Notes: generated from the letters alone by a model not told the origin. A stretch of 64,000 nt of DNA from an uncultured Chitinophagaceae bacterium (GCA_963845495.1 CAWJTH010000202.1:3239-67238), one strand, 5' to 3'; counted from the first letter of the stretch, positions 8,577 through 46,448 are shown. Program-made: numbers and translations.

Positions 8577-9566
8577 TTACGGAAATTTCCTGAAATAACT
8601 GTAACGCAAAATGCTTTCCAAAAATAGCAACAGCAAAGCGGCTATTAACCAAGGTTGAAAATGTTCGGTACGTTTATGGAAAGTGCTACTTTCAATTTTT
8701 GATTTTTCCAAACGGTCGATAGAAGCATAAATTTCACCAAGCTTCTGGCGGTCAGTGGCTCTATAATATTGGCCGTTTGTTTCTTTGGCAATTTGCTTTA
8801 GCAGATCTTCATCAATCGTCACTTTTTCTTGTTGCGTAACTTTGCCAAGCGGTGTTTCCATATCAATAGGTGCATAACCCTGCGTACCAACGCCAATTGT
8901 GTACACCCGAATGCCAAACGTTTTGGCAAGTTCTTTGGCGGTTTGTGGATCGATCAATCCACCATTGTCCACGCCATCGGTTAATAAAATGATGACTTTA
9001 CTTTTGGCGGTGCTATTTTTAAGCCTGTCAACGCCGGTGGCCAAGCCGCTACCAAGCGAAGTTCCATCCTTCAAAACGCCGCTTCTTGCGCCAGCCAATT
9101 GGTTTTGTAACATGGCTTTATCGGTTGTTAGCGGACTAAGCGTAAAACTTTCACCGCTAAAAATGACCAGCCCGATACGGTCGCCCTTGCGTTGCGCAAT
9201 AAAGTTGCTTGCCATTTCGCGGGATGCATCTAAACGGGTGGGCGTTAAATCTTTAGCGGCCATGCTTCCGCTTACATCTAAACAAAGCACAATGTCAATG
9301 CCTTGGCCGTCGGTTATCTCAATGTCGTTTTTCTCCTGCGGGCGGGCAAGCGCAACAATGCAACAGCCAAAGGCCAATAAACGTAATATTAAAGGAATAT
9401 TCCGTAACCGTACTTTCCATGTTTTTTCAATCGGCAACATCTGCACGTCAGAAAAAAGCAAGGTGGAAGTACTATTGGTTTCTTTGCTTTTTACATACCA
9501 ATAAATAAACGGCAACACCACTAGTGCTGCAAGTAAAAAGGGATATGCGAACGTAAAAGGAAACAT
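8577..9566 (-). CDS. batA: VWA domain protein, BatA-like (aerotolerance operon)
   Basis: ATG at 9566 (MFPFTFAYPFLL). It has an N-terminal TM, a VWA MIDAS block DIVLCLDVSGSM, a C-terminal TM, and sits in operon context with MoxR and DUF58. Confidence 0.85.
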   Translation of the reverse strand: MFPFTFAYPFLLAALVVLPFIYWYVKSKETNSTSTLLFSDVQMLPIEKTWKVRLRNIPLILRLLAFGCCIVALARPQEKNDIEITDGQGIDIVLCLDVSGSMAAKDLTPTRLDASREMASNFIAQRKGDRIGLVIFSGESFTLSPLTTDKAMLQNQLAGARSGVLKDGTSLGSGLATGVDRLKNSTAKSKVIILLTDGVDNGGLIDPQTAKELAKTFGIRVYTIGVGTQGYAPIDMETPLGKVTQQEKVTIDEDLLKQIAKETNGQYYRATDRQKLGEIYASIDRLEKSKIESSTFHKRTEHFQPWLIAALLLLFLESILRYSYFRKFP

Positions 9567-9594
9567 TTTTAGTGTCAATAGTCAATGGTCAATA

Positions 9595-9780
9595 GTGAAA
9601 CGTGAGACGTGAAATGTGAGACGTGAAATGTGAGACGTGAAACGTGAAACGTGAGACGTGAGACGTGAAATGTGAGGCATGAATCGTGAATCGTGAAATG
9701 TGAATCGTGAGGCATGAAACGTAAGTGAGTCGTTGCGGAATTAGTGAACCCGCTCACGACTCACGTCTGACGATTCACGA
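9595..9780. repeat. long tandem gtgaNNc word array plus short complementary arm
   Basis: Positions 9595-9735 are made almost entirely of cgtgagacgtgaaatgtgaga-type units. The opposing arm cgctcacgactcacgtctgacgattcacga (9752-9780) overlaps the stop of the upstream gene. Track ORF 9575-9757 is a translation of this repeat. Confidence 0.8.
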
Positions 9781-10668
9781 TTTTATTTGTCGGGGCATGT
9801 ATTGTCTGTTTGCTTCGCCACGATTTATTGTTTCAATTGCATCTTTAATAATAGCTAAACTGCTTCGCCATTCTGTTTTTGGCGGATTATATTTAGCAAA
9901 TTTTGCAGCATCTGCCAGCCTAATTGTATTGGCAAATTGGTAAAACAATTCATGGTTTAAAATTGGTTTTGCTTGCAAAATCAATTCATCGCCGGTTTGC
10001 TGCAAACTACGCCAGTTGCGGCTTTCGGCTAAATAACGGCGATAAATATCTATAAGTTGTGTAAAAAAAATGGCCGGTTTTTGTGTCGAAATTTTAGTTT
10101 CCAATTCGCTTAATGCCTGCATGGCATTATCAAAAGGGTTGCCCACCGGAACAAATTGTTTTTTTATTTCTTTTGTAATCTTTGTTTTTTTAATGAAACG
10201 ATAGACCCCAACAATTGAAAGAACCGCAATTAAACCAATGCCTAAAATGTAGGGCCATTGCGGCACTGGCGGTACCTCAATAATATCTTTGATGTCGTGG
10301 TAATCTTTTAACGAATCAACGTTTACGGGTTGCACATCAATGATAAACGAATTGGTGTGAACGGTGGCTTTTGCACCCATAATTTTTAATTCGGGAAATA
10401 CAAACTGGCCCGAATCGTAACTGGTAATGGTGATATTTTGTACCAAGGTGTCGCCATTGCGTTGTGGTTGGCTGCGGCTCCAAATGTCAAAATGCGGTAT
10501 GGAATCGGGGATAATAAATGCATCGTTGTTGCTTGGCGCAATGGAAATCAATTGTACGTGGATAGGCTCCGCAGTGCGGATGGAGGACCTATCGGGTGTG
10601 GCGTTTTGCTGTGCGTTGGCAAAGTGAAAAGTAAAAAGTAAAAAGGATAAAGTAAAAAACCGCATCAT
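9775..10668 (-). CDS. hypothetical signal-peptide/TM protein of the MoxR-DUF58-BatA operon
   Basis: Likely start MMRFFTLSFLLFTFHFANAQ at 10668 (a signal peptide). It has a central TM helix (ILGIGLIAVLSIVGVY). Its position between DUF58 and batA matches Bat operons. No family was recognised with certainty. Confidence 0.6.
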   Translation of the reverse strand: MMRFFTLSFLLFTFHFANAQQNATPDRSSIRTAEPIHVQLISIAPSNNDAFIIPDSIPHFDIWSRSQPQRNGDTLVQNITITSYDSGQFVFPELKIMGAKATVHTNSFIIDVQPVNVDSLKDYHDIKDIIEVPPVPQWPYILGIGLIAVLSIVGVYRFIKKTKITKEIKKQFVPVGNPFDNAMQALSELETKISTQKPAIFFTQLIDIYRRYLAESRNWRSLQQTGDELILQAKPILNHELFYQFANTIRLADAAKFAKYNPPKTEWRSSLAIIKDAIETINRGEANRQYMPRQIKS

Positions 10669-18620: not shown

Positions 18621-18627
18621 TTGGGCC

Positions 18628-18821
18628 GTGTCAGACGCCTTTGTATTTTGGGCGTCTGACACATGGACGTGGATGAATATTTGCCTAGAAGGATGGAAAC
18701 ACGGATGGGACAGATCGAAGGGATTTTCACGGATTTATTGTTTGGATGATTTAATCCTATCCAAGCAATAAATCCGTTTTTTTCTGTTCCATCTGTTCCA
18801 TCCGTGTTTCCATCCTTCTAG
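18628..18821. repeat. composite repeat: 12-bp stem hairpin plus 137-bp nested cacggat palindrome (copy 1)
   Basis: gtgtcagacgcc tttgtattttg ggcgtctgacac spans 18628-18662. ctagaaggatggaaacacggatgggacagat (18685-18715) pairs with atctgttccatccgtgtttccatccttctag (18791-18821) with 1 mismatch. An inner cacggatttattg/caataaatccgt stem is nested inside. Confidence 0.85.
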
Positions 18822-19880
18822 TTACCGATCCTGCATTTCCACATTTTCAAAATAAATTTTATAAAATTTTCGGCCGTCGCTTTCCACGCCTTGCTGAATC
18901 AATTCGCGGTTACCGTGAATGTAAACATGGAAGTTTTTATCCAATTTCAACACATTCTTAAACATTTTAGCTTGCTTTTTTACTGCTTGCCCATTAATTT
19001 CAAATTGGTCATCTAATTCAATTCCATTCTTTTCTCTATATTTTTCATCAAAATCTTGAAAAGATTCGATGAGATTGGCATGATGGAAAACTTCGTTCTC
19101 AAATTCTGATTTTTCGAATTGCTCGTGGGTTTTAAAATATTCGACAGAGCGGTTTAGCAAGTCAATCTGGTCGGTTTTGGTGAGGCTAAATTCTTCCGAA
19201 ACTTGTTGTGTTACAAAATTTTTGGTGATGGCCATCATATCTTTTGTAAAATGATAAGCATCGCTGCAAGGTTTTATTTGCAAGAACAATTCTTTCCAAT
19301 ATTGCGCTTCTTGTTGTTTGTTCGATTTGTCGATGACACAAACTTTATAGCCGTTTTCCTTGTCGGTGTTCAAAATAATGCATCCTTTATCTAACTTGTC
19401 GATGTTGATGCCGTCTTCAAATTTGATGGAAAATTCGCCCGACTCGTTACCTACTTTTAAAAAAGATTGCTTGTTTTCCGATTTAAAAATACCGATGGCA
19501 TCCATTGGTTGGTCATCAATACCCAAATTAGAAAAATAGGCTACAAATACATCGCCCGGTTTTATATTGGGATGAGTGGAAACTTCATATAAGTGTTTGG
19601 CAATATCAACCGAAGTTGGCTGCAACGTGTTATGATCCTCAAAAACCTGCGAAGCAAAATGAAAAAGCGGGTTCAAATTAAAATCGCCGTTGCTAAAAGT
19701 AAAATTGTAAAATTCTGCGGTGGCAAAAGGCGGAATAAAAAATTTAAATAGCAATTCTTTGGTATTATCTTCCTCAATATCCATCAAATTGGTAGAAAGG
19801 TATATTTCTTCGCCATTCGTTTTGTTGCCTACGTGATGCAGGGCAACCTGTTCTAATTTGGCCGCGGTAAAATCGAGCAT
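18822..19880 (-). CDS. nucleoid-associated protein (NdpA/YejK-like)
   Basis: 352 aa. The N-terminal L.QVALHHVGNK..GEEIYLS block and the overall size match the Bacteroidota NdpA-like family. Assignment is by recognition only. Confidence 0.75.
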   Translation of the reverse strand: MLDFTAAKLEQVALHHVGNKTNGEEIYLSTNLMDIEEDNTKELLFKFFIPPFATAEFYNFTFSNGDFNLNPLFHFASQVFEDHNTLQPTSVDIAKHLYEVSTHPNIKPGDVFVAYFSNLGIDDQPMDAIGIFKSENKQSFLKVGNESGEFSIKFEDGINIDKLDKGCIILNTDKENGYKVCVIDKSNKQQEAQYWKELFLQIKPCSDAYHFTKDMMAITKNFVTQQVSEEFSLTKTDQIDLLNRSVEYFKTHEQFEKSEFENEVFHHANLIESFQDFDEKYREKNGIELDDQFEINGQAVKKQAKMFKNVLKLDKNFHVYIHGNRELIQQGVESDGRKFYKIYFENVEMQDR

Positions 19881-19916
19881 GGTAAAAAGTTGGCGGCAAA
19901 AATATGAAGCTCGAAC

Positions 19917-20114
19917 GTGTCAGCCACCTTTGTATTTTGGGCGTCGGACACATGGCCTGTTTAGGGCGTGTTAGAAGCCCAGCAAAGATGGGAACGCGGA
20001 TGACACAGATTTGACGGAAAAGAATAGATTTAAAACCTTGCGGCTTTGAAAATAAGCTAGCCAATAATAAATCCGTGCAAATCCTTCTGATCCGTGTCAT
20101 CCGTGTTCCCATCC
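19917..20114. repeat. composite repeat, degenerate copy 2, same orientation as 18628-18821
   Basis: gtgtcagccacctttgtattttgggcgtcggacacatgg (19917-19955) matches copy 1 with substitutions. It is followed by gatgggaacgcggatgacacagat ... gatccgtgtcatccgtgttcccatcc imperfect palindrome arms. Track ORF 19774-20112 is a translation artefact of it. Confidence 0.75.
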
Positions 20115-22820: not shown

Positions 22821-25800
22821 ATGGACTACGATTTCAGGAAAATTGAGCAGGCTTGGCAAGAAAAATGGAAGGCAACCCAAGCTTACAAAACCACCAACGA
22901 CACCACAAAACCAAAGTGTTATGTGCTGGATATGTTTCCTTACCCAAGTGGTGCGGGACTGCATGTGGGTCATCCGTTGGGCTACATTTCAAGCGATATT
23001 TATAGCCGATATAAAAGGCTGAAAGGTTTTAACGTGCTGCACCCCATGGGTTATGATGCTTTTGGTTTGCCGGCCGAACAATATGCCATTGAAAAAGGTG
23101 TGCATCCTGCCGTTTCAACCGAAGAAAATATTGCCAATTTCCGCAAGCAGTTAGACAATATTGGCTTCAGCTACGATTGGGACCGTGAAGTTCGTACCAG
23201 CGAAGCCAGCTATTATAAATGGACGCAATGGATTTTTCTGCAATTGTTCCATAGCTTTTTTAATCGTATCGATAACCGGGCCGAACATTTGTCGGTATTG
23301 ATCGAATCGTTTGAAAATGAAGGAAGTTTGGTACATGAGATTCCAAATACGAAATACGAAATACGAGAAACGGGCAAAAACTCTTTTACCGCCGAAGAAT
23401 GGAATGGCTTCGACGAAAAAACCAAACACGATATTTTAATGGAATACCGCCTGGCGTTTTGTGGCTATGGCGAAGTGAATTGGTGCGAAGCACTGGGCAC
23501 CGTTTTGGCCAACGACGAAGTGGTGAACGGCGTAAGCGAACGTGGCGGTTATCCGGTAGAAAAAAAACGCCTCCGCCAATGGTATTTGCGCATTACCGAA
23601 TATGCTGATCGCTTGCTGAAAGGTTTAGAAACCGTTGATTTTAGCGAGGCAATGAAAGAAATGCAAAGCAATTGGATCGGAAAAAGTTATGGGGCGGAAA
23701 TTGAGTTCAACCTCACCCCCGGCCCCTCTCCACAAGTGGCGAGGGGTGCCTCTGTGCAAGTGTCATCACAGTCGGAAAATCCGGGTTCAAAAAATTCAGT
23801 CGTTCCTAAGTATTCAATCGTATCTATTAAGCAGTTCGAGCTAGCAAGAGAAAATAGAAAAGGTCATACAGAGGCAGAAGCAATTTTATGGAAAGAATTA
23901 CGTGGAAATAACTTGGGTGAAAAATTTAGGCGCCAACACCCAATTGATGCCTATATCGTCGATTTTGTTTCTCTTCAAAACAAATTGATAATTGAAATTG
24001 ATGGCGGTTATCATGAAACGGAAGACCAAAAAATTTATGACGATGCCCGTAGCAGTGTGTTAAATCAAATTGGTTTTAAAGTAATCCGATTTACTAACGA
24101 AGAGGTGATCAATCACACAAAAGAAACAATAAAAAGAATAAAAGAAGCACTCGCGGAAGAACAGCAAGAAGCCACAAATATTCACGAACCCGCAATTGGC
24201 AAACAGTCAGCCAGCTTCACAGAGGCACCCCTCGCCACGAGTGGAGAGGGGACGGGGGTGAGGTCTTTAGTCGTTTACACAACCCGCCCCGACACCATTT
24301 TTGGTGTTGATTTTATGGTTATTGCGCCGGAACTGGATTGGATTCCAAGCATTGTTTCGGAAGCACAAAAAGAAGAAGTTGAAAATTATATTGCTTACGT
24401 AAAAAGCCGTAGCGAACGGGAGCGCCAAGCGGAGAAAAAGATAAGTGGTTGTTTTACAGGTGCTTATGCCATCAATCCGTTTAACGGAAAAGAAATTCCG
24501 ATTTGGATAAGCGAATATGTTTTAGCTGGTTATGGCACAGGTGCTATTATGGCCGTGCCTTGCGGCGATGACCGTGATTTTAAGTTTGCGCAGCATTTCA
24601 ATATTCCCATCACTAATATTTTGGGCGATGCGTTTAATGGAAATGAAGCTAATCCAACTAAAGATGCGAAGCTAACTAATAGTGGTTTTTTAGACGGCGT
24701 GGTAATGCGGGATGCCATCCAAATTGTAAATGCCAAGCTGGAAGAAATGGGCATTGGCAAGGCCAAAGTAAATTACCGGATGCGGGATGCGGCGTTTAGC
24801 AGGCAGCGCTATTGGGGCGAGCCATTCCCGATTGTTTGGAAAAACGGTATTGCTTATGCATTGGATGAAAGCGAATTGCCACTGGAACTGCCCAAAGTAG
24901 ATGGTTATGGCCCGGGACCAGATGGCGAAGGTCCGCTAGCAAATATTTTAGAATGGACGGCACAAAACTTGGAAACGAACACCATGCCTGGTTATGCCGG
25001 TTCATCGTGGTACTTTTTAAGGTATATGGATCCGCACAACGACCAAGTTTTTTGCGACCGCAAAGCCAGCGATTATTGGAACCAAGTAGATATTTACATC
25101 GGCGGCACCGAACATGCCGTTGGCCATTTATTGTATAGTCGCTTGTGGACCAAGGTTTTATACGATCTTGGGTTTATTGGTTTTGATGAACCGTTCAAGA
25201 AATTGGTGAACCAAGGGATGATTCAGGGAAGTTCGAGGTTTGTGTATAGAATTGTTGGAACCAATCAGTTTGTTTCCGCCGGCAAAAAAAATGAATACAA
25301 CGTAACCCCTTTGCACGTAGACGTGAATCTTGTTGATGGCTATGAACTTGATATTGAAGCATTTAAAAAATGGAAACCAGAATTTGCCGATGCTGAGTTT
25401 GTATTTGAAGACGGTACTCTTTCTTTTTCTTGCACTATTGGTACCGCAAAAGATATGAAATATATCTGCGGCTCTGAGGTTGAAAAAATGAGTAAAAGGT
25501 ATTACAACACTGTTAATCCTAACGATATATGTGAAAAATACGGTGCTGATACTTTCCGCATGTACGAAATGTTCTTGGGGCCGGTGGAAGCGTCTAAACC
25601 TTGGGAAACCAAAGGCATTGAAGGCGTTCATCGTTTTCTTAAAAAATTGTGGCGCTTATTTTTTACGGATACTACTTTTTCAAATGGAAAAGCAGTGCAA
25701 GGCAAACCAGTTTGGAACGACCAACCCGCTACACCGCAAGAATTGAAAGTGTTGCACAAAACTATCCGCAAAATTGATGATGACACGGAAAAATTCAGTT

Positions 25801-26195
25801 ACAATACAGCCGTAAGCGCTTTTATGGTTTGCGTAAACGAATTAACGGATTTGAAATGCAATAAAAAATCGGTGTTGGAACAATTGCTGGTGTTATTGTC
25901 GCCTTATGCGCCGCATGTAACGGAAGAATTATGGCATCAGTTGGGCAACACAACCAGTATTTTAGATGCAGCTTATCCGGTGTTCGAACAAAAATATGTG
26001 GTGGAGTCGTCCAAAGAATATCCAGTTAGCATCAATGGTAAATTAAGAACCACTATGGATTTTGCCCTTGATGCAATGGAGGCGGATGTAAAAAGCGAAG
26101 TATTGACCAACGAAATTGTGCAAAAATGGTTGGAAGGCAAAGAGCCGAAGAAAATTGTTTTTGTAAAAGGAAAAATGATAAATGTGGTGGTGTAA
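22821..26195 (+). CDS. leuS: leucine--tRNA ligase carrying a 185-codon in-frame insertion
   Basis: 1124 aa. Motifs: HVGHPLGY (HIGH), NWIGKS, TTRPDTIFG (editing-site Thr-rich motif), KMSKRYYN (KMSKS). Residues about 297-482 have no counterpart in LeuRS and form the cassette listed separately. Confidence 0.95.
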   Translation: MDYDFRKIEQAWQEKWKATQAYKTTNDTTKPKCYVLDMFPYPSGAGLHVGHPLGYISSDIYSRYKRLKGFNVLHPMGYDAFGLPAEQYAIEKGVHPAVSTEENIANFRKQLDNIGFSYDWDREVRTSEASYYKWTQWIFLQLFHSFFNRIDNRAEHLSVLIESFENEGSLVHEIPNTKYEIRETGKNSFTAEEWNGFDEKTKHDILMEYRLAFCGYGEVNWCEALGTVLANDEVVNGVSERGGYPVEKKRLRQWYLRITEYADRLLKGLETVDFSEAMKEMQSNWIGKSYGAEIEFNLTPGPSPQVARGASVQVSSQSENPGSKNSVVPKYSIVSIKQFELARENRKGHTEAEAILWKELRGNNLGEKFRRQHPIDAYIVDFVSLQNKLIIEIDGGYHETEDQKIYDDARSSVLNQIGFKVIRFTNEEVINHTKETIKRIKEALAEEQQEATNIHEPAIGKQSASFTEAPLATSGEGTGVRSLVVYTTRPDTIFGVDFMVIAPELDWIPSIVSEAQKEEVENYIAYVKSRSERERQAEKKISGCFTGAYAINPFNGKEIPIWISEYVLAGYGTGAIMAVPCGDDRDFKFAQHFNIPITNILGDAFNGNEANPTKDAKLTNSGFLDGVVMRDAIQIVNAKLEEMGIGKAKVNYRMRDAAFSRQRYWGEPFPIVWKNGIAYALDESELPLELPKVDGYGPGPDGEGPLANILEWTAQNLETNTMPGYAGSSWYFLRYMDPHNDQVFCDRKASDYWNQVDIYIGGTEHAVGHLLYSRLWTKVLYDLGFIGFDEPFKKLVNQGMIQGSSRFVYRIVGTNQFVSAGKKNEYNVTPLHVDVNLVDGYELDIEAFKKWKPEFADAEFVFEDGTLSFSCTIGTAKDMKYICGSEVEKMSKRYYNTVNPNDICEKYGADTFRMYEMFLGPVEASKPWETKGIEGVHRFLKKLWRLFFTDTTFSNGKAVQGKPVWNDQPATPQELKVLHKTIRKIDDDTEKFSYNTAVSAFMVCVNELTDLKCNKKSVLEQLLVLLSPYAPHVTEELWHQLGNTTSILDAAYPVFEQKYVVESSKEYPVSINGKLRTTMDFALDAMEADVKSEVLTNEIVQKWLEGKEPKKIVFVKGKMINVVV
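23710..24264 (+). mobile_element. 555-bp in-frame cassette: DUF559 (Vsr-like) endonuclease domain flanked by hairpin-forming terminal inverted repeats
   Basis: Left arm acctcacccccggcccctctccacaagtggcgaggggtgcctctg (23710-23754). Right arm cagaggcacccctcgccacgagtggagaggggacgggggtgaggt (24220-24264) is its reverse complement with 3 differences. The core encodes ARENRKGHTEAEAILWKELRGNNLGEKFRRQHPIDAYIVDFVSLQNKLIIEIDGGYHETEDQKIYDDARSSVLNQIGFKVIRFTNEEV, a DUF559 signature. There is no stop and no ATG codon inside. Confidence 0.8.
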
Positions 26196-30510: not shown

Positions 30511-30574
30511 TATTAATAATCTGACGAATTCTACATTTTGAACATACTCACGACTGACGATTCACGCCTCATGA

Positions 30575-32382
30575 TTATGCCATTGCACCAACTGATTTAG
30601 ATTCCCTTTTGCGGGTTTCTTCATCCAAGTTGTTTTTGCGTAGGCGGATTGCTTTAGGCGTTACTTCGATGCACTCATCACCTTGGATATACTCCATACA
30701 TTCTTCCAAAGTCATTTGGATTTTAGGCGTAATGCGAACGCTATCATCGCTACCGCTTGCACGGTGGTTAGTTAGTTTTTTAGGTTCAGTAGCATTTACT
30801 ACCAAATCGCCTGGTTTAATATGTTCGGCTATAATTTGGCCGGTGTAAACTTCTTCACCAGGTTCAATAAAGAAAGAACCGCGGTCTTGTAATTTATCGA
30901 TTGAATATGCAGTTGTGGTTGCGCCATTCTTGGAGATTAACACACCGTTGCTACGGCCAGGAATTGGGCCTTTCCAAGGTTTGTATTCGTTAAAACGGTG
31001 CGCCATTACAGCTTCGCCGGCAGTGTTGGTAAGCATTTGCGAACGCATACCAATCAATCCACGTGAAGGGATTTCAAATTCCAGATGTTGCATTTCGCCT
31101 TTGCTTTCCATTACCAACATTTCGCCTTTGCGTTGCGTAGCAAGGTCAATAGCTTTTCCGCTGAATTCGGCAGGAACATCGATTACCAATGTTTCATAAG
31201 GCTCGCATTTTTTACCGTCGATTACTTTTATAATAACCTGCGGTTGGCCAACGGTCAATTCAAAACCTTCGCGACGCATGGTTTCAACCAAAACGCCCAG
31301 GTGCAAAATACCACGTCCAAATACCAAGAAGCTATCAGCGCTATCCGTATCTTCAACACGCATAGCTAGGTTCTTTTCAGTTTCCTTCATCAAACGGTCA
31401 CGCAAGTGGCGGCTGGTAACAAACTTACCTTCCTTACCAAAAAATGGTGAGTTGTTGATGCTGAACAGCATATTCATGGTTGGTTCATCAACGTGTGTAA
31501 TTGGCAAAGCTTCAGGATTTTCAAAATCGGCAATGGTATCGCCAATATCAAAACCTTCCAATCCAACAACAGCGCAAATATCACCGCCAAAACTTCGGTA
31601 GCTTTCTTTTTGCCCATACCCTCAAAAGTATATAGTTCTTTTATTTTGATCCTTTTTATTTTGCCGTCGGCCTGCATCAAAGCAACTGTTTGGCCTTCTT
31701 TAATTGAACCGCGGGTAATCCTTCCCACGGCAATACGGCCAAGGAAAGAAGAATAGTCCAAAGAGGTAATTTGCAATTGCAAGTTTCCTTCAGGCACCAC
31801 ATATTCAGGCACGTATTTCAAAATACCATCCATTAACGGAGTAATATCTTCGGAAGGCGTTAGGCTATCGTTAAACCAACCGTTTTTGCCGCTACCATAA
31901 AAAGTGGGGAAATTTAATTGTTCCTCGGTAGCATCCAAGTTGAAGAACAATTCAAAAACCGCGTCGTGTACTTCATCGGGGCGGCAGTTCGGCTTGTCTA
32001 CTTTATTGATGATTACGATTGGTTTTAAGTTCAATTGCAAAGCTTTTTGCAACACAAAACGGGTTTGTGGCATTGGTCCTTCAAAAGCATCTACCAACAA
32101 TAAAACGCCGTCGGCCATTTTCAAAACCCTTTCTACCTCGCCGCCAAAGTCACTGTGACCTGGGGTATCTATTACATTGATTTTGAAGCCTTTATATTCA
32201 ACCGAAATATTTTTGCTGAGAATGGTAATACCACGTTCCCTTTCAAGATCGTTGTTGTCCATAATCAACTCACCGGTTTCCTGGTTGTCACGAAATACCT
32301 TCGTGGCATGTAAAATTTTATCTACCAATGTTGTTTTGCCATGGTCAACGTGAGCGATAATGGCGATGTTGCGAATATTCAT
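30575..32382 (-). pseudogene. typA: translational GTPase TypA/BipA interrupted by an apparent 1-nt deletion (or a sequencing error)
   Basis: Track ORF 31474-32382 holds the GTPase domain (AHVDHGKTT, DTPGH, NKVD). ORF 30575-31561 holds the C-terminal domains. Re-reading around 31580-31600 gives ...KKKATEVLA then, one frame over, GDICAVVGLEGFDIGDTIADFENP. The total of 1808 nt equals 3n-1. Confidence 0.88.
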
Positions 32383-36140: not shown

Positions 36141-39100
36141 TTATCCTTCCAATTCCATCTTCAAAAACCTTGCGGTATGACTTACTTTATTGTTAATCAT
36201 TTCTTCCGGCGTTCCTTCAAATAAAATTTCGCCGCCACCATCGCCGCCTTCCAAGCCAAGGTCAATAATATGATCAGCAACTTTTATCACATCCATATTG
36301 TGTTCAATAACCAAAACAGAATTGCCGCGATCAACCAACTTATTTACCACTTCTAATAAATGTTGGATGTCCTGAAAATGTAATCCTGTTGTTGGTTCGT
36401 CTAAAATATAAAACGTTTTGCCGGTGTCTTTTTTACCTAATTCTGTACTCAATTTCACACGCTGTGCTTCGCCACCACTAAGTGTCACGGAACTTTGGCC
36501 AAGGGTAATGTAGCCCAAACCAACATCTTGCAGCACCTTTATTTTTCTGTACATCCAAGGTATGGCCTGAAAAAATTCCACGGCATCGTCCACCGTCATG
36601 TCCAACACATCGCTGATGCTTTTGCCTTTGTAGCGTATTTCCAGCGTTTCGCGGTTGTAGCGTTTGCCTTGGCATTTTTCGCACGGCACGTAAACATCAG
36701 GCAAAAAATTCATTTCAATTACCCGCATGCCGCCGCCTTCGCATACATCGCAACGGCCGCCTTTTACGTTAAAAGAAAAACGGCCAGGCAAATAACCCCT
36801 AATTTTTGCTTCAGGAACGGAAGCGAATAATTGCCTTATCTCTGTAAAAAATCCACAATAAGTAGCTGGATTACTGCGTGGTGTGCGGCCAATCGGGCTT
36901 TGGTCAATCTCAATTACTTTATCAATAAAATCCAAGCCTTTGATGCGCTTGTAAGGCATTGCCACCATTTTGCTAGCCAAAAAACTATGGCGACTTAAAA
37001 TGGGATAAAGTGTTTCGTTTATTAATGTTGACTTGCCGCTGCCGCTTACGCCAGTTACCACAATCAATTGCCCTAAAGGAAATTTTACCGAAACATTTTT
37101 AAGCGTATTTCCCGTGGCACCTTGCAATTCTAAAAATTTGCCATTGCCTTTGCGGCGTTCTTTGGGTATTTCAATTTTCTTTTCGCCATTTAAATATTGG
37201 GCGGTTTCACTATGCGTAGCCAACACTTCGGCGGGTGTTCCCATGGCTACAATATTGCCGCCATGGCGGCCGGCTTTGGGGCCGATATCCACCAAAAAAT
37301 CAGACGCCATCATGATGTCTTTGTCGTGTTCCACCACTAAAACACTATTGCCGATGTCGCGTAAATGGCGCAACGCATCAATCAACCGCTGGTTGTCGCG
37401 TTGGTGCAAACCAATGGAAGGTTCATCTAAAATATAGGTGATGCCCTGCAGTTGTGAACCAATTTGTGTAGCCAAGCGAATCCGCTGGCTTTCGCCACCA
37501 CTCAGTGTTTTAGAAGAACGGTCGATGGTGAGATAATTCAACCCAACATCCAACAAAAATTGTAGGCGTTCCCTAATTTCCTTCAATACATCTTTCGAAA
37601 TCAGTAATTGTTTTTTGCTGATACGATCCTCGATGCCATCGAACCAACGCATTAGTTTATCAAGGTTTAGGTGGCTGAGTTCCGCAATATTTTTTCCATC
37701 TACCATAAAATAAAGGCTTTCTTTTTTAAGCCTTGCGCCTTGGCACGATGGGCAAGTTTGCAAAGACATAAAACCCTCAGCCCAATCGCGGATGGCATCG
37801 CTGTTGCTGCCATTGAACCAGCGTTTTACCATATTTATCACACCCTCAAACTCGTCAGTCGTGAATCGTGAGTCGTGAGTTGGGCCGCTGCTATCTGGTG
37901 AATTGCTTACCACTGACGCCTCACCACTTACCAAATCCCCCATCATTTCCAAATCATTTTCATCCGGCGTTTCTTTACCGTAAAAAATAATATTTTTTTG
38001 CGCTTCCGTTAATTCGCTAATTGGTTTTGAAAGGTTGAATTTATTTTTTCTAGCCAATGCTTCTACTTGCTTAAAAATCCAAGCTTCGCGTTTTTCGCCC
38101 AGCGGCGCAATGCCACCGTCGTTTATGCTAACAGATGGATCGGGGATAACCGACGCCATATCAATTTGGTAAACTGTTCCTAAGCCTTTACAAACTGGGC
38201 AAGCACCATAAGGGCTGTTAAATGAAAACGAATTGGGCGAAGGCTCGTCGTAACTGATGCCGGTGTCTTCGCACATTAAGGCTTTGGAATATTGAACCAG
38301 CAAAGACGACGGACGATTGACGACGGACGACTTGCCACCCGTGGTCTTTCGTCCGTCGTCAATCGTCGGTTCTACCTGGATCTGCATGATATCCTTTCCC
38401 AACTTTAACGCTTGTTGCACGCTCTGGCTTAAGCGCAGCTTCATATCTGGCGTTGCGGGCAGGCGGTCAACCACCAATTCAATGTCGTGAATTTTATATC
38501 GGTCGACCTGCATTTTAGGCACCAAGTCTTTAATTTCACCATCAATCCGCACTTTTAAATAACCTTTTTTGCGTAGGTCTTCAAATAGTTCGCGGTAGTG
38601 GCCTTTTCTGCCCCTAATTATAGGTGCTAAAATGGATAATTTGCCATTTGCAAAGCGGCTGAAAATATTTTCGACGATTTCTTCTTCGCTCCATTTTACC
38701 ATTTTTTTACCTGTATTGTAACTTATGGCATCGCTGCCACGAGCGTACAACAAACGCATAAAATCGTAAATTTCGGTGATGGTGCCAACGGTGCTACGCG
38801 GATTTTTATTGGTGGTTTTTTGTTCGATGGAAATAACAGGCGAAAGGCCGGTTATTTTATCTACATCGGGCCGTTCCATATCGCCCATAAATTGGCGGGC
38901 ATAAGCGCTGAAGCTTTCCATGTAGCGGCGCTGGCCTTCGTTGTAAATGGTATCGAAAGCCAAAGATGATTTACCGCTTCCGCTAACACCTGTAAAAACC
39001 ACCAGTTTATTTTTGGGTATGGAAATGTCGATGTTTTTGAGGTTGTGTTCGCGGGCACCAAAAACTTCGATCACCTCACCCTCCGGCTCCCTCTCCACAA

Positions 39101-39182
39101 GTGGCGAGGGAGTGCCCCTATTTGAGCTTTGATTAATTTTTTTGGGCTTTACCGTTGTTTTTTCAATTGTTTCCTTTGCCAT
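36141..39182 (-). CDS. uvrA: excinuclease ABC subunit A with three repeat-derived in-frame extensions or insertions
   Basis: 1013 aa. Motifs: GAREHNLKNI, two ABC modules (GVSGSGKSS twice, LSGGE twice), zinc modules CPVCKGLG, CPSCQG, CDVCEGGG, CEKCQG. The extra segments coincide with repeat DNA, listed separately. Confidence 0.95.
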   Translation of the reverse strand: MAKETIEKTTVKPKKINQSSNRGTPSPLVEREPEGEVIEVFGAREHNLKNIDISIPKNKLVVFTGVSGSGKSSLAFDTIYNEGQRRYMESFSAYARQFMGDMERPDVDKITGLSPVISIEQKTTNKNPRSTVGTITEIYDFMRLLYARGSDAISYNTGKKMVKWSEEEIVENIFSRFANGKLSILAPIIRGRKGHYRELFEDLRKKGYLKVRIDGEIKDLVPKMQVDRYKIHDIELVVDRLPATPDMKLRLSQSVQQALKLGKDIMQIQVEPTIDDGRKTTGGKSSVVNRPSSLLVQYSKALMCEDTGISYDEPSPNSFSFNSPYGACPVCKGLGTVYQIDMASVIPDPSVSINDGGIAPLGEKREAWIFKQVEALARKNKFNLSKPISELTEAQKNIIFYGKETPDENDLEMMGDLVSGEASVVSNSPDSSGPTHDSRFTTDEFEGVINMVKRWFNGSNSDAIRDWAEGFMSLQTCPSCQGARLKKESLYFMVDGKNIAELSHLNLDKLMRWFDGIEDRISKKQLLISKDVLKEIRERLQFLLDVGLNYLTIDRSSKTLSGGESQRIRLATQIGSQLQGITYILDEPSIGLHQRDNQRLIDALRHLRDIGNSVLVVEHDKDIMMASDFLVDIGPKAGRHGGNIVAMGTPAEVLATHSETAQYLNGEKKIEIPKERRKGNGKFLELQGATGNTLKNVSVKFPLGQLIVVTGVSGSGKSTLINETLYPILSRHSFLASKMVAMPYKRIKGLDFIDKVIEIDQSPIGRTPRSNPATYCGFFTEIRQLFASVPEAKIRGYLPGRFSFNVKGGRCDVCEGGGMRVIEMNFLPDVYVPCEKCQGKRYNRETLEIRYKGKSISDVLDMTVDDAVEFFQAIPWMYRKIKVLQDVGLGYITLGQSSVTLSGGEAQRVKLSTELGKKDTGKTFYILDEPTTGLHFQDIQHLLEVVNKLVDRGNSVLVIEHNMDVIKVADHIIDLGLEGGDGGGEILFEGTPEEMINNKVSHTARFLKMELEG
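37856..37932. repeat. word-repeat pair inside the uvrA coding sequence
   Basis: G/T arm cagtcgtgaatcgtgagtcgtgagttgg (37856-37883) and C/A arm gcttaccactgacgcctcaccacttacc (37905-37932) use the same tcacg/tcacc words as the intergenic hairpins. Complementarity is imperfect. They encode ...SGEASVVSNSPDSSGPTHDSRFTTDE just before the conserved FEGVI block. Confidence 0.65.
38312..38367. repeat. perfect 19-bp stem hairpin inside the uvrA coding sequence
   Basis: gacgattgacgacggacga (38312-38330) and tcgtccgtcgtcaatcgtc (38349-38367) are exact reverse complements with an 18-nt loop. The hairpin is translated in frame as IDDGRKTTGGKSSVVNRP. Confidence 0.85.
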
Positions 39183-39399
39183 ATTTGTTTCTTGCGGAAT
39201 ATCGAAAATACAAACAAGTAGTGGAAGGAAAGGTTTTATGCGAAAAAAATTAGTTTTTCTTGATTAAGATGGCATCATGTTATTTAAAATTCATTTATAG
39301 AGCGATTTAAAAAAGCAAACGGAAACCTTAAATGAAATAAATGAGCCTTTATAGGGGCACTCCCTCGCCACTTGTGGAGAGGGAGCCGGAGGGTGAGGT
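39073..39399. mobile_element. 327-bp nuclease-less member of the leuS-cassette repeat family, spanning the uvrA start
   Basis: acctcaccctccggctccctctccacaagtggcgagggagtgcccctat (39073-39121) and ataggggcactccctcgccacttgtggagagggagccggagggtgaggt (39351-39399) are perfect 49-bp reverse complements, about 85 percent similar by eye to the leuS cassette arms. The 229-bp AT-rich core contains the uvrA ATG at 39182. Confidence 0.8.
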
Positions 39400-39400
39400 T

Positions 39401-40159
39401 TTACTCCCTTTGTATCATTTCAAACAACTGCACTACGGCATCTTTCCGTTGTGGCGAAACGGGCAATTCATCGTTGTTGTCCATTACCACATAACCGCCT
39501 TCGCTGCGGCTATATTTTTTTAGGAACGCTGGATTGATTAAGTGCGATTGATGGATGCGTAAAAATCCCCGCTTGCTTAAAATTTTCTCCACTTCTTTCA
39601 AGGTGCGGCAAATAAGTAGGTTTTCTTTGGTGTTCAAGATAAAATGCGTGTAATTATCTTGGCTTTGGCAGCGGATAATATTTTGGATGGGAATAAATTG
39701 GTAACCATCGGTTGTGGGTAAAGCTACTTTTTGGGAAGTAGCGTTAGCCATTTGGTAAGCTTGGAAAAAATTATCAAACTGGTCTTTTTGCAAAACCTGT
39801 TGTTGTTTTTGCTCCCAAGTGCCGATAGCAGCTAACAATTCAGCGTCTTCAACAGGTTTTAAGCAATAGCTGATAGCGCTATATTTAAAAGCTTCCACCG
39901 CATATTGGTTGTATGCAGTTACAAACACAATATCAAAATGGAACGGGTACAATTTGGTCAACAGTTCAAAACCGCTGAGCCGAGGCATTTCAATATCCAA
40001 AAAAAGCAGGTTGAATTGCAGTTTGGGAATTTCGGCCAAAGCAATTTGGCTATCGTTAAAAACGGCCACCACTTCAATATCGCGGCGTAATTTTTTCAAT
40101 TGCAATTGCAGGGTTTCTGTGGCGAGTTTTTCATCATCCACCAATACAACTTTTATCAT
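39401..40159 (-). CDS. LytR/AlgR family response regulator (REC + LytTR)
   Basis: 252 aa. It has an N-terminal receiver (VLVDDE ... LLFLDIEMP) and a C-terminal LytTR DNA-binding domain (FLRIHQSHLIN). Confidence 0.9.
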   Translation of the reverse strand: MIKVVLVDDEKLATETLQLQLKKLRRDIEVVAVFNDSQIALAEIPKLQFNLLFLDIEMPRLSGFELLTKLYPFHFDIVFVTAYNQYAVEAFKYSAISYCLKPVEDAELLAAIGTWEQKQQQVLQKDQFDNFFQAYQMANATSQKVALPTTDGYQFIPIQNIIRCQSQDNYTHFILNTKENLLICRTLKEVEKILSKRGFLRIHQSHLINPAFLKKYSRSEGGYVVMDNNDELPVSPQRKDAVVQLFEMIQRE

Positions 40160-40292: not shown

Positions 40293-42347
40293 TCAGGTTT
40301 CCATCAAAATATTTACGGTGGTGCCGGTTGGGTTTCTGTCTAAATCTTCATTGTCTTTAATTGCTACGGAAAGTTTGCCGGCATTTACTTGGTTATAAAG
40401 ATCGATGCGTTCATCTGTTATTTTTATGCCGTAGCTTTCCATTTTATTCATTTTGTTTTCTTTATAAATAGCTGCTGCTTTTCTGCCAACACCGTTATCA
40501 ATAATCTGTATCAACACATGGCCGTTGATTTTCCTTATTTCGATGGCGCATTTTTTATCTGTGGTATCGCTATTGGCCAAGCCGTGCCAAATAGCATTTT
40601 CTACAAACGGTTGCAATAATAACGGCGGAATATGGATATTTTGTGGCACCACGTTTTCATCCACATGAATATGGTAATGAAAAGATTGGTCGAAACGCAA
40701 ACTTTCAATATCAAGATAAAGGTTTAAGGCATCTAATTCTTGTTGTAAGGTAATAGTTTCGTGGCTGGTATAATCAAGGATGAGACGCAACAACCGAGAA
40801 AATTTGTTGAGATAAAAAGCGGCGGTGTCGTTATCGTTTTTGAGGATAAAATATTTAATGCTGTTGAGGCTGTTGAACAAAAAATGGGGATTCATACGGC
40901 TGCGCAAGGCAAGCATTCTTGTTTCGCTAATTTGCCTTTCGTACGAAGAGCGGGTTTCTTGTAATTTTACTTCTTCCATTTCTTTTGCCTGTTGTTTCAT
41001 TTGTTTGGTTCGTTCCAATACTTTTTGCTCCAGCTTTTGGTTGTTTTCTATCATCAATTGTTCGTTCAATTTCATTTGTTCAATCAATTGTGCATTCGAT
41101 TTGTCTTTTTCTTCCCGCATTTCTTTTATACGTATGCCAAGTGCAAAAGCGAAAAAAAAGCACTCGCACAAAATGCCCATATCGTACCAGTTGGTATCGC
41201 TTAAACGTAAAATATATCCGGTAAAACCAACATCGCCCCTAATAATAGACATAATCGAAAATGCTAAAAAAAGTCCTGAACCGGCTATAAAATACGTTTT
41301 TATTGTACTTTTTATTTTTATGGCTACCGTTATAATGATTGTTAAACTAATAACTATTAATATATAGTGTAAAACAATGTTTAGCAAGCTTCTATATTTA
41401 AACGTTGGCCAATTGTAACTTACAAACCACTGTAGCAAACTATAAGCCCATAAACTATAAGCCAGCCATTTTAAAAACAGATATAAGCGCTTGTATTGGG
41501 TTTTCAACCCCAATAATGTGTTGGTGAAAATGAGGTAAGCACCTATTGCTGAAAGTACCAAAGGCTCGTCCAGCGTAAACACCAGCAATGGATTGCGTAG
41601 CGTAATAGAACCTACCAGCGTGTTTGATTCCAATTCAAAAAAACTGCATAATAATTGCAGCGCTAGGTAAAAAGCATAAATACCATACAATTGTTGTTTG
41701 CTTGTTGTGTACATGAACAAGAAAAACGACAACATTAAAAACATGGCACCTAAAAAAAAGATCATCAGGTATTCGTGTGTATCGGTAAGCGGCTCGTTGT
41801 CTTTATAAAATTTATAGTACGCCTCCGGCGAAAAAATGGCAGCTCGCATGTTTGGCTTCCCGCTTAAAAAACCTTGCATGTTTACCTGCACAAAAGCCTT
41901 GGTGTTTTTTTTTATGGCCAACGGCAAAAAGCCTTCACCGTCGTTACCAAAACGGTGGTTAATGGGAATATAGTTGCCGGTTTGTTGGATGGTTTTTTTG
42001 CCTGTTGCACTGTCGGTAATAATAAGTGTGGTGATGCCGTTTCCTTTGTTTCTAAAGTAAAAGGCGGTGTCTACACCGAAATCATTTTTTATTTCAAAAG
42101 AAATATGTCCAACTCCTTTATTGTCAAGTATTTCCCCATTTTTTAAATCTATTTTGTTGTGAAGTGTAGAAAAATTGACCATACTTTTTTGCCCTTGGCC
42201 AAAAGCACCAAAGAAAATGGTTAGAAAAAAGATAATATAACTTATCCTGTGTATGATGGCAGTCTGTTTTAAGGATTGGGCATAGTTAAGCTTTTGAAGA
42301 GATTTGGGTATAGTTGTTAGCCATGCAATCAATAAAAGCGGTTGCAT
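40293..42347 (-). CDS. sensor histidine kinase, LytS/YehU type, with 7TM-DISM-like N-terminal region
   Basis: 684 aa. It has a signal/TM, an extracellular region, seven predicted TM helices, a coiled-coil and the His_kinase block RSRMNPHFLFNSLNSI plus a GHKL ATPase C-terminus. Confidence 0.85.
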   Translation of the reverse strand: MQPLLLIAWLTTIPKSLQKLNYAQSLKQTAIIHRISYIIFFLTIFFGAFGQGQKSMVNFSTLHNKIDLKNGEILDNKGVGHISFEIKNDFGVDTAFYFRNKGNGITTLIITDSATGKKTIQQTGNYIPINHRFGNDGEGFLPLAIKKNTKAFVQVNMQGFLSGKPNMRAAIFSPEAYYKFYKDNEPLTDTHEYLMIFFLGAMFLMLSFFLFMYTTSKQQLYGIYAFYLALQLLCSFFELESNTLVGSITLRNPLLVFTLDEPLVLSAIGAYLIFTNTLLGLKTQYKRLYLFLKWLAYSLWAYSLLQWFVSYNWPTFKYRSLLNIVLHYILIVISLTIIITVAIKIKSTIKTYFIAGSGLFLAFSIMSIIRGDVGFTGYILRLSDTNWYDMGILCECFFFAFALGIRIKEMREEKDKSNAQLIEQMKLNEQLMIENNQKLEQKVLERTKQMKQQAKEMEEVKLQETRSSYERQISETRMLALRSRMNPHFLFNSLNSIKYFILKNDNDTAAFYLNKFSRLLRLILDYTSHETITLQQELDALNLYLDIESLRFDQSFHYHIHVDENVVPQNIHIPPLLLQPFVENAIWHGLANSDTTDKKCAIEIRKINGHVLIQIIDNGVGRKAAAIYKENKMNKMESYGIKITDERIDLYNQVNAGKLSVAIKDNEDLDRNPTGTTVNILMET

Positions 42348-45373: not shown

Positions 45374-45506
45374 TGAGTGGTGAATAAGTTTCAGATAGTA
45401 ATTATTTCCTGATAATTACAAGAATTAAAAACAAAAAAATTAATCAGTTACAGGGAAAGCTCAAATTTAGTGAGCCAACTCACGACTGACCACTCACGAT
45501 TCACGC
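45359..45506. repeat. word hairpin between convergent genes, with arms overlapping both gene ends
   Basis: gtgaatagtgaatagtgagtggtgaata (45359-45386) supplies the last codons (VNSE, stop) of the SDR gene. ctcacgactgaccactcacgattcacgc (45479-45506) overlaps the stop and last codon of lpxD-2. Confidence 0.75.
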
Positions 45507-46448
45507 TTCCATTACCTTTTTCCAAAGCTCCGGAATGCGTTTTATCCAAACCAATTCTTTGCGTTTTATGCCAGCTTCTTCGGCCGGAAAGCCCATATAA
45601 ACCTTGCCGCCTTCGATGCTTTTGGTTACTGCGGTTTGGCCCATAATTACAGCATTGTCGCCAATGCTCAATGTTTTATTTACACCAACTTGTCCCCAAA
45701 TAGTTACACCGTCGCCCACGGTTGTGGCACCTGCAATGCCCACTTGCGAAGCAATAATGCAGTTGCGGCCAATCACCACATCGTGGCCCAACTGGATTAA
45801 ATTATCCAGCTTCGTTCCCTGCATAATCCTGGTGTCGTTTGTTACGCCTTTGTCGATGCAACAATTGGCACCAATTTCCACATCGTCTTCAATTACCACG
45901 CGGCCGCAACTGGCCATTTTTTTATACCAATTCTCCCGGTTTTTTTTGGTGTTGTAATAAAAAGCATCGGCCCCAATTACAGTACCAGCATGTATTGTAA
46001 CGTTATTGCCAATTACACAATCGCTGTAAATGGTAACGTTTGGATGAATGACACAACCATTGCCAATCACTACATTTTCGCCAATAAATGCATTGGGCGC
46101 AATATGTGTTCCATGGCCGATAATGGCTGTTTCTGCCAGCATTTTTGTAGCTGGTTTTAACGGTCTAAAATGTTGCACAATTTTTAAATAACCTTCAAAC
46201 GGTTGTTCCATGAAAAGCAAGGTTTTGCCTGGCGGAACGGTAACATCTTTTGAATTAATAATGATGAATTTGGCAGGGCTGTTCAAGCAAGTTCCATAAT
46301 ATTTTGGGTGATCCACAAATACCATATCATTATGCTGCACTTTATGTATTTCGTTGATGCCCGGAACCGGTGCATTGGCATCACCAATTATTTCTGCCCC
46401 AATTAATTGCGCAATCGTGCTGGCTGTTGTGCCTTCAGGAAAAATCAT
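45501..46448 (-). CDS. lpxD: UDP-3-O-acylglucosamine N-acyltransferase, second paralog
   Basis: 315 aa. It has the LpxD-type N-terminal domain followed by hexapeptide repeats, and is shorter than the copy at 21425. Confidence 0.8.
   Translation of the reverse strand: MIFPEGTTASTIAQLIGAEIIGDANAPVPGINEIHKVQHNDMVFVDHPKYYGTCLNSPAKFIIINSKDVTVPPGKTLLFMEQPFEGYLKIVQHFRPLKPATKMLAETAIIGHGTHIAPNAFIGENVVIGNGCVIHPNVTIYSDCVIGNNVTIHAGTVIGADAFYYNTKKNRENWYKKMASCGRVVIEDDVEIGANCCIDKGVTNDTRIMQGTKLDNLIQLGHDVVIGRNCIIASQVGIAGATTVGDGVTIWGQVGVNKTLSIGDNAVIMGQTAVTKSIEGGKVYMGFPAEEAGIKRKELVWIKRIPELWKKVMEA

Follow-up and report, generated by a model that had tools for sequence, protein, structure and literature searches.

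Probable composite origin of a perfect inverted repeat around the uvrA start in an uncultured Chitinophagaceae bacterium

The spacer upstream of uvrA

The DNA analyzed here is a 64,000-nucleotide stretch from an uncultured Chitinophagaceae bacterium (GCA_963845495.1, CAWJTH010000202.1:3239-67238; hereafter the window), and its subject is a pair of inverted repeats (IRs) in the spacer between the repair gene uvrA and a response regulator (RR) gene. uvrA lies on the minus strand (36141-39182) and encodes a protein of 1013 amino acids with UvrA_inter, UvrA_DNA-bind, and ABC_tran domains, whose N terminus reads MAKETIEKTTVKPKKINQSSNRGTPSPLVEREPEGEVIEVFGAREHNLKNI and places the organism in the Chitinophagaceae. 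Its upstream neighbor is a LytTR-family RR gene on the same strand (39401-40159; PF00072 and PF04397), for which the comparison set contains a graded series of orthologues, and the gene for the histidine kinase of this RR is located at 40293-42347 (PF06580).

The two arms of the pair (39073-39121 and 39351-39399) are 49 nt long, 100% complementary, and 229 nt apart. A repeat search confirmed both their exactness and the internal hairpin reported in a preliminary description of the window. Each arm carries CTCCCTC-T-CCAC AA GTGG-C-GAGGGAG, an imperfect hairpin (39087-39112, with its counterpart at 39360-39385) with a 12-bp stem, one T.C mismatch, and a 2-nt loop. The uvrA-side unit, which reads 5'-ACCTCACC... 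on the plus strand, matches the profile of the repeat family (E = 8e-11). The RR-side unit, on the minus strand, begins 1 nt past the RR stop codon, as had been described, and the segment between the arms holds no open reading frame (ORF) besides the start of uvrA itself and, again as described, no DUF559 domain. Identity between the arms ends exactly at the unit boundaries of the repeat family: no extension of the IR past 49 nt was detected, the local alignment score of the inner flanks being 21 versus 16.9 ± 2.5 for shuffled sequences. No target-site duplication (TSD) was found at the locus, as the outer flanks (..TTCGATC| and |TTTACTCC..) share no direct repeat, and there were no Rfam matches at E ≤ 1 in 38500-40000. 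Scans for sigma-70 promoters and intrinsic terminators, which do not model Bacteroidota promoters, were uninformative and returned nothing at the conserved block upstream of uvrA that is described below.

The hairpin core CCCTCTCCACAAGTGGCGAGGG occurs at four sites in the window (chance expectation, 0.00), namely, both arms at uvrA and both arms of an element in leuS, the only other place in the window that carries the unit. A family profile run over the 64 kb with nhmmer recovered these four intact arms only, with no further copies, decayed ones included. The leuS element is a 555-bp cassette (23710-24264, plus strand) inserted in frame in the ORF of a 1124-residue LeuRS (leuS, 22821-26195), in which the arms (23710-23756 and 24218-24264) bracket a DUF559 sequence (PF04480, E = 1e-31). 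The uvrA arm is 88% identical to the left leuS arm and 82% identical to the right one, in line with the ~85% previously estimated by eye.

In the preliminary description, the whole 327-bp interval, arms included, was regarded as a single element, a nonautonomous derivative of the DUF559 cassette resembling a miniature inverted-repeat transposable element (MITE), which had filled the spacer and now supplied the uvrA start and probably its promoter. Perfect 49-bp terminal IRs of the leuS-cassette family and the position of the ATG at 39182 between them are consistent with such an element, and a Correia element upstream of uvrB offers a precedent for a MITE-borne promoter (PMC10969869). That the length of the interval is a multiple of three has no meaning, as a stop codon, intergenic DNA, and a start codon all fall within it. 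Its 229-bp core shows no significant similarity to the interior of the leuS cassette and divides into two parts in BLAST comparisons with the window and the fetched loci: positions 1 to 137 (39122-39258) have their matches solely in the 5' regions of orthologous uvrA genes, and no match was obtained for positions 138 to 229 (39259-39350). The interval is thus probably not one element but a composite of two separate repeat copies around an ancestral uvrA 5' region.

The uvrA 5' region and the two arms in related loci

The start codon of uvrA (ATG, 39182-39180) and the first ~20 codons, which encode a Lys-rich N-terminal extension (39122-39182, minus strand), are ancestral. Nearly all of 120 Chitinophagaceae UvrA orthologues begin with MAK or MKK followed by a Lys-rich stretch, 15 to 70 amino acids before the conserved IEVxGAREHNLK. 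The DNA of 39122-39258 is 80 to 94% identical in four related loci (92, 94, 88, and 80% in L002, L008, L009, and L010, respectively), and the ATG and extension are shared by these four and by the armless locus L084 (UvrA 80% identical), which has a different upstream gene, keeps ACCTTT..ACTGTTTGTATTTTC..ATG GCG AAA, and retains part of the upstream block. This block, ~70 bp long and promoter-like (AAAAACTAATTTTTTTCGCATAAAACCTTTCCTTCCACTACTTGTTTGTATTTTCGATATT), lies with the uvrA leader at 39183-39258 (minus strand) and is near-invariant in the window, L002, L008, L009, and L010; in the five-way alignment it is followed by an A-rich leader and then ATG GCA AAG. The block itself (39195-39258) is better conserved than the adjoining coding sequence across relatives with 83 to 97% protein identity, which suggests a constrained promoter, operator, or leader element, and its resemblance to Bacteroidota -33/-7 motifs may indicate a promoter. 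Since the block is conserved in relatives without the arm pair, and the start and extension are likewise shared, neither the promoter-like block nor the start of uvrA was supplied by an inserted element.

The GTG at 39074 (V37), previously named as the only alternative start, is present and in frame, but it is not the only one, as a second in-frame GTG (V29) is found at 39098-39096. The codon directly before IEV is GTC, CTG, TTC, or GCC in close relatives, so that the GTG at 39074 merely results from the ..GT with which the arm ends and is not a conserved start. Judged from these orthologues, the ATG at 39182 is the conserved uvrA start and is older than both arms.

The uvrA-side arm is translated on the minus strand as UvrA residues ~21 to 37, (N)RGTPSPLVEREPEGE(V). 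The window, L002, and L008 all carry it at identical codons and in one orientation, and each reads through it with the host ORF intact; weak, decayed relics of it are aligned in L009 and L010. In L008 (UvrA 89% identical), the arm peptide is NGRTSLQLVARKAEDEL and the hairpin has decayed to 9/12 pairs; the extension of L002 reads MAKETIEKTTVKSKKTNESSNRGTPSPQVARKLEGEVEVIEVFG. By reading of the pairwise alignment, three substitutions, a single flip of the inner hairpin, and a 6-nt indel that keeps the frame (+6 in L002) separate the arm of the window from that of L002. The shared core is 92% identical between these two loci, which indicates that the arm has changed where it stands, at about the rate of its surroundings. 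Evolution in place and the preserved frame would fit translation as a weakly constrained linker. The uvrA-side arm is, from its distribution, an old in-frame insertion that was vertically inherited.

The flip of the inner hairpin is seen as CTCCCTC-G-CCAC-TT-GTGG-A-GAGGGAG in the window against CTCCCTC-T-CCAC-AA-GTGG-C-GAGGAAG in L002; between window 39087-39112 and L002 2415-2440, the position of the mismatch and the loop are reversed, and the orientation of the outer arm is unchanged. This looks like a microinversion between the 7-bp outer stem halves. In seven other Chitinophagaceae UvrA proteins (P0184, P0192, P0194, P0196, P0197, P0215, and P0224), IEVxGAREHNLK is directly preceded by palindromic-repeat-like peptides of other sequence (PPKGGDLEGA, SPLRGDFEGA, and similar). 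In-frame repeats seem to have landed repeatedly where extension and core meet. UvrA of the window also contains two more lineage-specific insert loops (amino acids 274 to 290 and ~418 to 439; window 38313-38363 and 37866-37931, respectively). The second loop overlaps a dispersed TCACGAN-type heptamer repeat, with intergenic copies at 9745-9782, 30539-30576, and 45471-45508, and may be another in-frame repeat-derived insert.

The RR-side arm (39351-39399) has a different distribution. The junction of RR stop codon and arm is found again in the independent Logan contig L001, whose RR is 100% identical and which breaks inside the arm. The arm is absent behind the RR stop codon in L002, L085, L086, and L010 (97, 95, 92, and ~86% identity, respectively). 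In L002, the RR gene is followed by 310 bp and then uvrA; ATG, extension, upstream block, and uvrA-side arm are all present, and ~250 bp of unrelated GC-rich hairpin sequence stands in place of the RR-side arm and the adjoining 92 bp. In L010 (UvrA 86% identical), the RR-uvrA synteny is kept, with only ~75 bp of other sequence from the RR stop codon to the shared block, and in L085 and L086 uvrA does not follow the RR gene. On this evidence, the RR-side arm is a real and recent acquisition, limited to the lineage of the window. The preliminary suggestion that perfect arm identity reflects a recent event fits its absence from L002.

The AT-rich 92 bp adjoining the RR-side arm on its inner side (39259-39350) are lineage specific: no homologue was found in the window or the fetched loci, relatives having unrelated sequence there, and no similarity was detected to the arm-associated tails in L039, L073, and L082, to the uvrA-side flank, or to the leuS cassette interior. 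The segment could be a tail that came with the RR-side unit or a remnant of spacer. The position past the RR stop codon turns over rapidly: each relative has a hairpin or repeat sequence of its own there, such as GGCGGA-type GC-rich repeats in L002 (2050-2240) and, in L010 (725-790), a stem of 11 bp that closes a large loop.

The source is a metagenome-assembled contig, and the break of L001 inside the arm is what would be expected at a repeat, so a chimeric or fold-back join was considered. Such an artifact is exceedingly improbable: L001 independently shows the RR stop codon followed by the arm, orthologues confirm the uvrA-side arm together with its inner flank, both inner flanks belong to a single 229-bp segment as its two ends, the 137 bp of this segment nearest to uvrA are orthologous to relatives, and ordinary reads span a 49-nt repeat.

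These comparisons also bear on the single MITE-like element. Relatives keep the uvrA-side arm and core without the RR-side arm, and the comparison of RR-uvrA junctions found the N-terminal extension shared by relatives without an inverted-repeat pair. The ATG, extension, and upstream block are orthologous in loci that lack the second arm and in the armless orthologue, the MAK start is family-wide, and presence or absence varies among relatives for the RR-side arm only, alone or together with its 92-bp tail. Terminal IRs are a MITE feature of the interval; there is no TSD, the core is not repeated elsewhere, and the whole is neither repeated nor present or absent as a block. A single element that donated the uvrA start and promoter is accordingly contradicted by the relatives and highly improbable. 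For the uvrA copy, the term nuclease-less relative is fair as regards the arms shared with leuS; the proposed autonomous/nonautonomous relationship of the two copies is conjectural.

Selection could instead have kept the pair, either as an inverton that flips the promoter and start of uvrA or as a long RNA stem that insulates uvrA from read-through of the two-component operon, e.g., by RNase III cleavage of the 49-bp duplex. The IRs enclose a 229-bp segment with the promoter-like block (of presumed promoter function) and the ATG, and a hypothetical inversion would place an in-frame ATG (plus strand, 39341) before the arm, giving MSLY-RGTPSPLVEREPEGEV-IEVFG. In addition, DUF559-annotated products are enriched among the predicted targets of programmed inversion in an inversion survey (PMC9881135), Correia elements can invert (PMC10969869), and the spacer region folds at -151 kcal/mol (z = -12.5). 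However, the low folding energy is a trivial consequence of a perfect IR and would be relevant only to transcripts that continue from the regulator operon, and chance alone could well provide an in-frame ATG within a few codons of AT-rich DNA. No recombinase domain, and hence no invertase beside the IR-flanked promoter-like segment, was found within ±10 kb (ORFs of 28.8 to 47.5 kb), no UvrA in the alternative orientation occurred among the database matches, and the assemblies show a single orientation. The RR-side arm is present in one lineage only, so that the pair is not conserved. Selection for either role is quite unlikely; no evidence of function was found, and the pair most probably serves none that is under selection at this locus.

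The repeat family and its DUF559 cassettes

In genome, metagenome, and viral-contig scans, the arm family is dispersed across many genomes, a sign of mobility that agrees with the earlier view of the arms as mobile. A scan for the hairpin core in one genome per species, with 8-kb neighborhoods fetched, gave 71 matches against a rough chance estimate of ~17, which assumes uniform base composition. About 25 of the 71 carry the extended signature CCTCACCCC-N5-7-CCCTCTCCAC-NN-GTGGCGAGGG; their hosts are Chitinophagaceae and other Bacteroidota, Chloroflexota, Armatimonadia, Spirochaetales, a Chitinispirillaceae metagenome-assembled genome (MAG), and betaproteobacterial MAGs. Nearly all of the matches stand alone, without a DUF559 sequence in the 8 kb fetched. 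The consensus unit of ~49 nt consists of an outer module (ACCTCACCC..), the imperfect hairpin CCCTCTCCAC-NN-GTGGCGAGGG, and an inner end, GTGCCYCT... Architectures vary and include a fully palindromic 48-nt unit (L019), tandem arrays (L021 and L061), an arm with a shared ~80-bp tail and no partner arm at two loci of one MAG (L039 and L073), three tandem arm-plus-tail units directly behind a stop codon (L082), and a two-ended minielement of ~130 bp (L083). A metagenome scan with the Bacteroidota-type arm found two contigs only.

The exact hairpin pattern had no match in viral contigs. When the outer module CCTCACCCCCGGCCCCTCKCC was used alone, 119 viral stretches were recovered, with 202 units in ~1 Mb. 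The base of the hairpin is closed by GGNGAGGGG in 112 of 127 distinct units, versus a background of 1.6%, and takes the form CCCCTCTCC/GG(A/C)GAGGGG; the apex varies freely. The T.C mismatch subtype found in the window arms accounts for 31 of the 112 closed units. Units are often co-oriented between genes or arranged in alternating plus/minus arrays; tight tandem (spacing of 19 to 47 nt) or alternating arrays were observed at L061 4587-4807, L021 5798-5943, L188 4342-4608, and L165 10425-11881. Clustering of 1556 ORFs neighboring 252 units revealed no recurrent partner gene, such as RAYT, the clusters being ordinary phage genes with ≤5 loci each, and 12 unit-rich loci had no Rfam match at the gathering threshold. 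The family is very large and appears to be an undescribed cross-phylum variant of the REP (repetitive extragenic palindrome)/MITE kind; no description of the repeat sequence, of DUF559 with IRs, or of its in-frame insertion was found in the literature searched.

Homologues of the in-frame leuS cassette occur in LeuRS at the same site as in the window (P0271) and at a second site (P0241, P0242, and P0250), in different Chitinophagaceae. DUF559 cassettes are also fused ahead of IspF (P0244 to P0257) and RNase HI (P0306 to P0310), and the junctions in the host proteins carry arm-encoded PSP..RG and ..GEGxGVR peptides, sometimes in tandem copies. No TSD surrounds the leuS cassette. The recurrence in several host genes marks the arm-DUF559-arm cassette as an insertable unit, and the uvrA interval has the inverted pair of family units but neither a DUF559 ORF nor a recognizable remnant. 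The link between DUF559 and the unit is not general, because units bracket a single one (L208) of 80 viral DUF559 loci, and a DUF559 gene is present in just 1 of the 119 viral loci selected for units. The arms shared with the leuS cassette and the insertion of cassettes in several genes would speak for a cognate autonomous element, and the rarity of DUF559 beside the units speaks against one; DUF559 is not a known transposase.

Members of the Vsr fold recognize mismatches or act as homing nucleases (PMC3424549, PMC12907096), the leuS cassette encodes DUF559, and the unit hairpin has a conserved T.C mismatch. The uvrA interval, by contrast, has no nuclease; DUF559 genes are rarely bracketed by units, and the units lie mostly far from DUF559. 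It is a tentative and rather doubtful proposal that the unit belongs to an undescribed cross-phylum superfamily of hairpin repeats copied in trans by DUF559 (Vsr-like PD-(D/E)XK) nucleases that recognize the imperfect hairpin. If it were true, the system would parallel the REP/RAYT "REPtron" with an enzyme of another fold, the RR-side arm would be a fresh trans-mobilized or repair-templated copy, and whole nuclease cassettes would have entered essential genes (leuS, ispF, and rnhA) in frame through the same machinery.

Several other features of the window were observed. A tandem array of 7/14-nt GTGAAAC/GTGAGAC units in ~10 registers (9553-9746) adjoins the heptamer-repeat copy at 9745-9782. 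In the region 18627-20114, ~1.3 kb are bracketed by a 63-nt IR (18685-18821), which has another partner at 20063-20114, and by direct repeats of 40 nt (18627 and 19916); this repeat-bounded segment has no relation to the arm family. TypA/BipA is divided between two overlapping minus-strand ORFs (30575-31561 and 31474-32382), the pieces being a GTPase domain of 302 amino acids and EFG_C plus BipA_C domains in 328 amino acids, and the split could represent a frameshift, a sequencing error, or programmed frameshifting.

Origin of the pair and kinship with known elements

A composite origin is likely for both parts of the pair, the old uvrA-side unit and the recent RR-side copy. The promoter-like block, leader, ATG, and Lys-rich extension of uvrA (39122-39258) are ancestral and lie between two separate unit copies. 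The uvrA-side unit is an old in-frame insertion at the point where the variable N-terminal extension meets the conserved IEVFGAREHNLK core, inherited vertically as ~16 residues of poorly constrained linker and decayed in some relatives. The RR-side unit is a recent arrival, 1 nt behind the RR stop codon, and the 92 AT-rich bp may have accompanied it. The 49/49 identity of the arms may have arisen when the RR-side unit was copied locally, in inverted orientation, from the uvrA-side unit; alternatively, the unit may have come from elsewhere and then been homogenized with its neighbor by gene conversion. We infer that recent local copying or gene conversion is the most likely cause of the perfect identity. 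The lack of TSDs and the conserved imperfect hairpin suggest a hairpin-recognizing REP/IS200-like route or a nuclease/repair route rather than DDE cut-and-paste. Possible side effects would be a stem-loop directly behind the RR stop codon and, in read-through transcripts only, a 49-bp duplex around the uvrA start.

Several points weigh against a composite origin. An old arm and a new arm that are identical at 49/49 positions require the additional step of copying or conversion just postulated, and a third, "master" copy identical to both may exist elsewhere in the genome. The arm ages are based on five relatives, four of which are short metagenome contigs, and the 92-bp AT-rich segment is left unexplained.

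The units resemble REP/REPIN sequences (PMC3116915, PMC3337134) in that they are short, dispersed, imperfect palindromes, mostly extragenic and often just behind stop codons, that occur as singlets, inverted doublets, and arrays, and inverted units can bracket a gene, as REPs bracket RAYT genes. They differ from REP/RAYT systems in the lack of a RAYT (Y1/HUH) gene beside the units in the fetched sequence or within ±10 kb of the uvrA locus, in the bracketed ORF type, the only one seen being DUF559, a PD-(D/E)XK nuclease, and in the lack of a 5' GTAG head. REP families are typically lineage specific, whereas the invariant 21-nt module of this family is common to phyla and viral contigs. Unlike in a REPIN, the units of the uvrA pair are 229 bp apart, with 137 bp of ancestral uvrA sequence between them, and the two copies differ in age.

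The uvrA-side unit and the leuS arms share with Rickettsia palindromic elements (RPEs) and intragenic MITEs (PMC10969869) the property of a palindromic in-frame insert in a housekeeping gene that is tolerated as a peptide. The likeness to RPEs is one of architecture: the phylum is another, the unit is ~49 nt versus ~150 bp, and the insertion in UvrA falls within a variable N-terminal linker that is probably disordered. The small Correia elements (CREE) found in Neisseria have terminal IRs, lie by uvrB, can supply a promoter, and can invert (PMC10969869). A small arrangement of terminal IRs beside a repair gene is common to both, uvrA here and uvrB in Neisseria; unlike in CREE, the promoter-like block and start at uvrA are ancestral host sequence, no TSD is present, and the core is unrepeated.

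For the locus, the result is corrective: annotation should retain the ATG at 39182 as the uvrA start, and no MITE should be called. The repeat family is more interesting than the uvrA locus. Its 21-nt module and hairpin base are conserved across Bacteroidota, Chloroflexota, Armatimonadota, Proteobacteria, and many viral contigs, and it is translatable as protein and sometimes brackets Vsr-like nuclease genes in frame within housekeeping genes. The family could be a frequent origin of spurious "PSP..GEGxGVR" peptides in metagenome annotations, and its mechanism of spreading, if worked out, could extend the REP/MITE picture by another class of enzyme.

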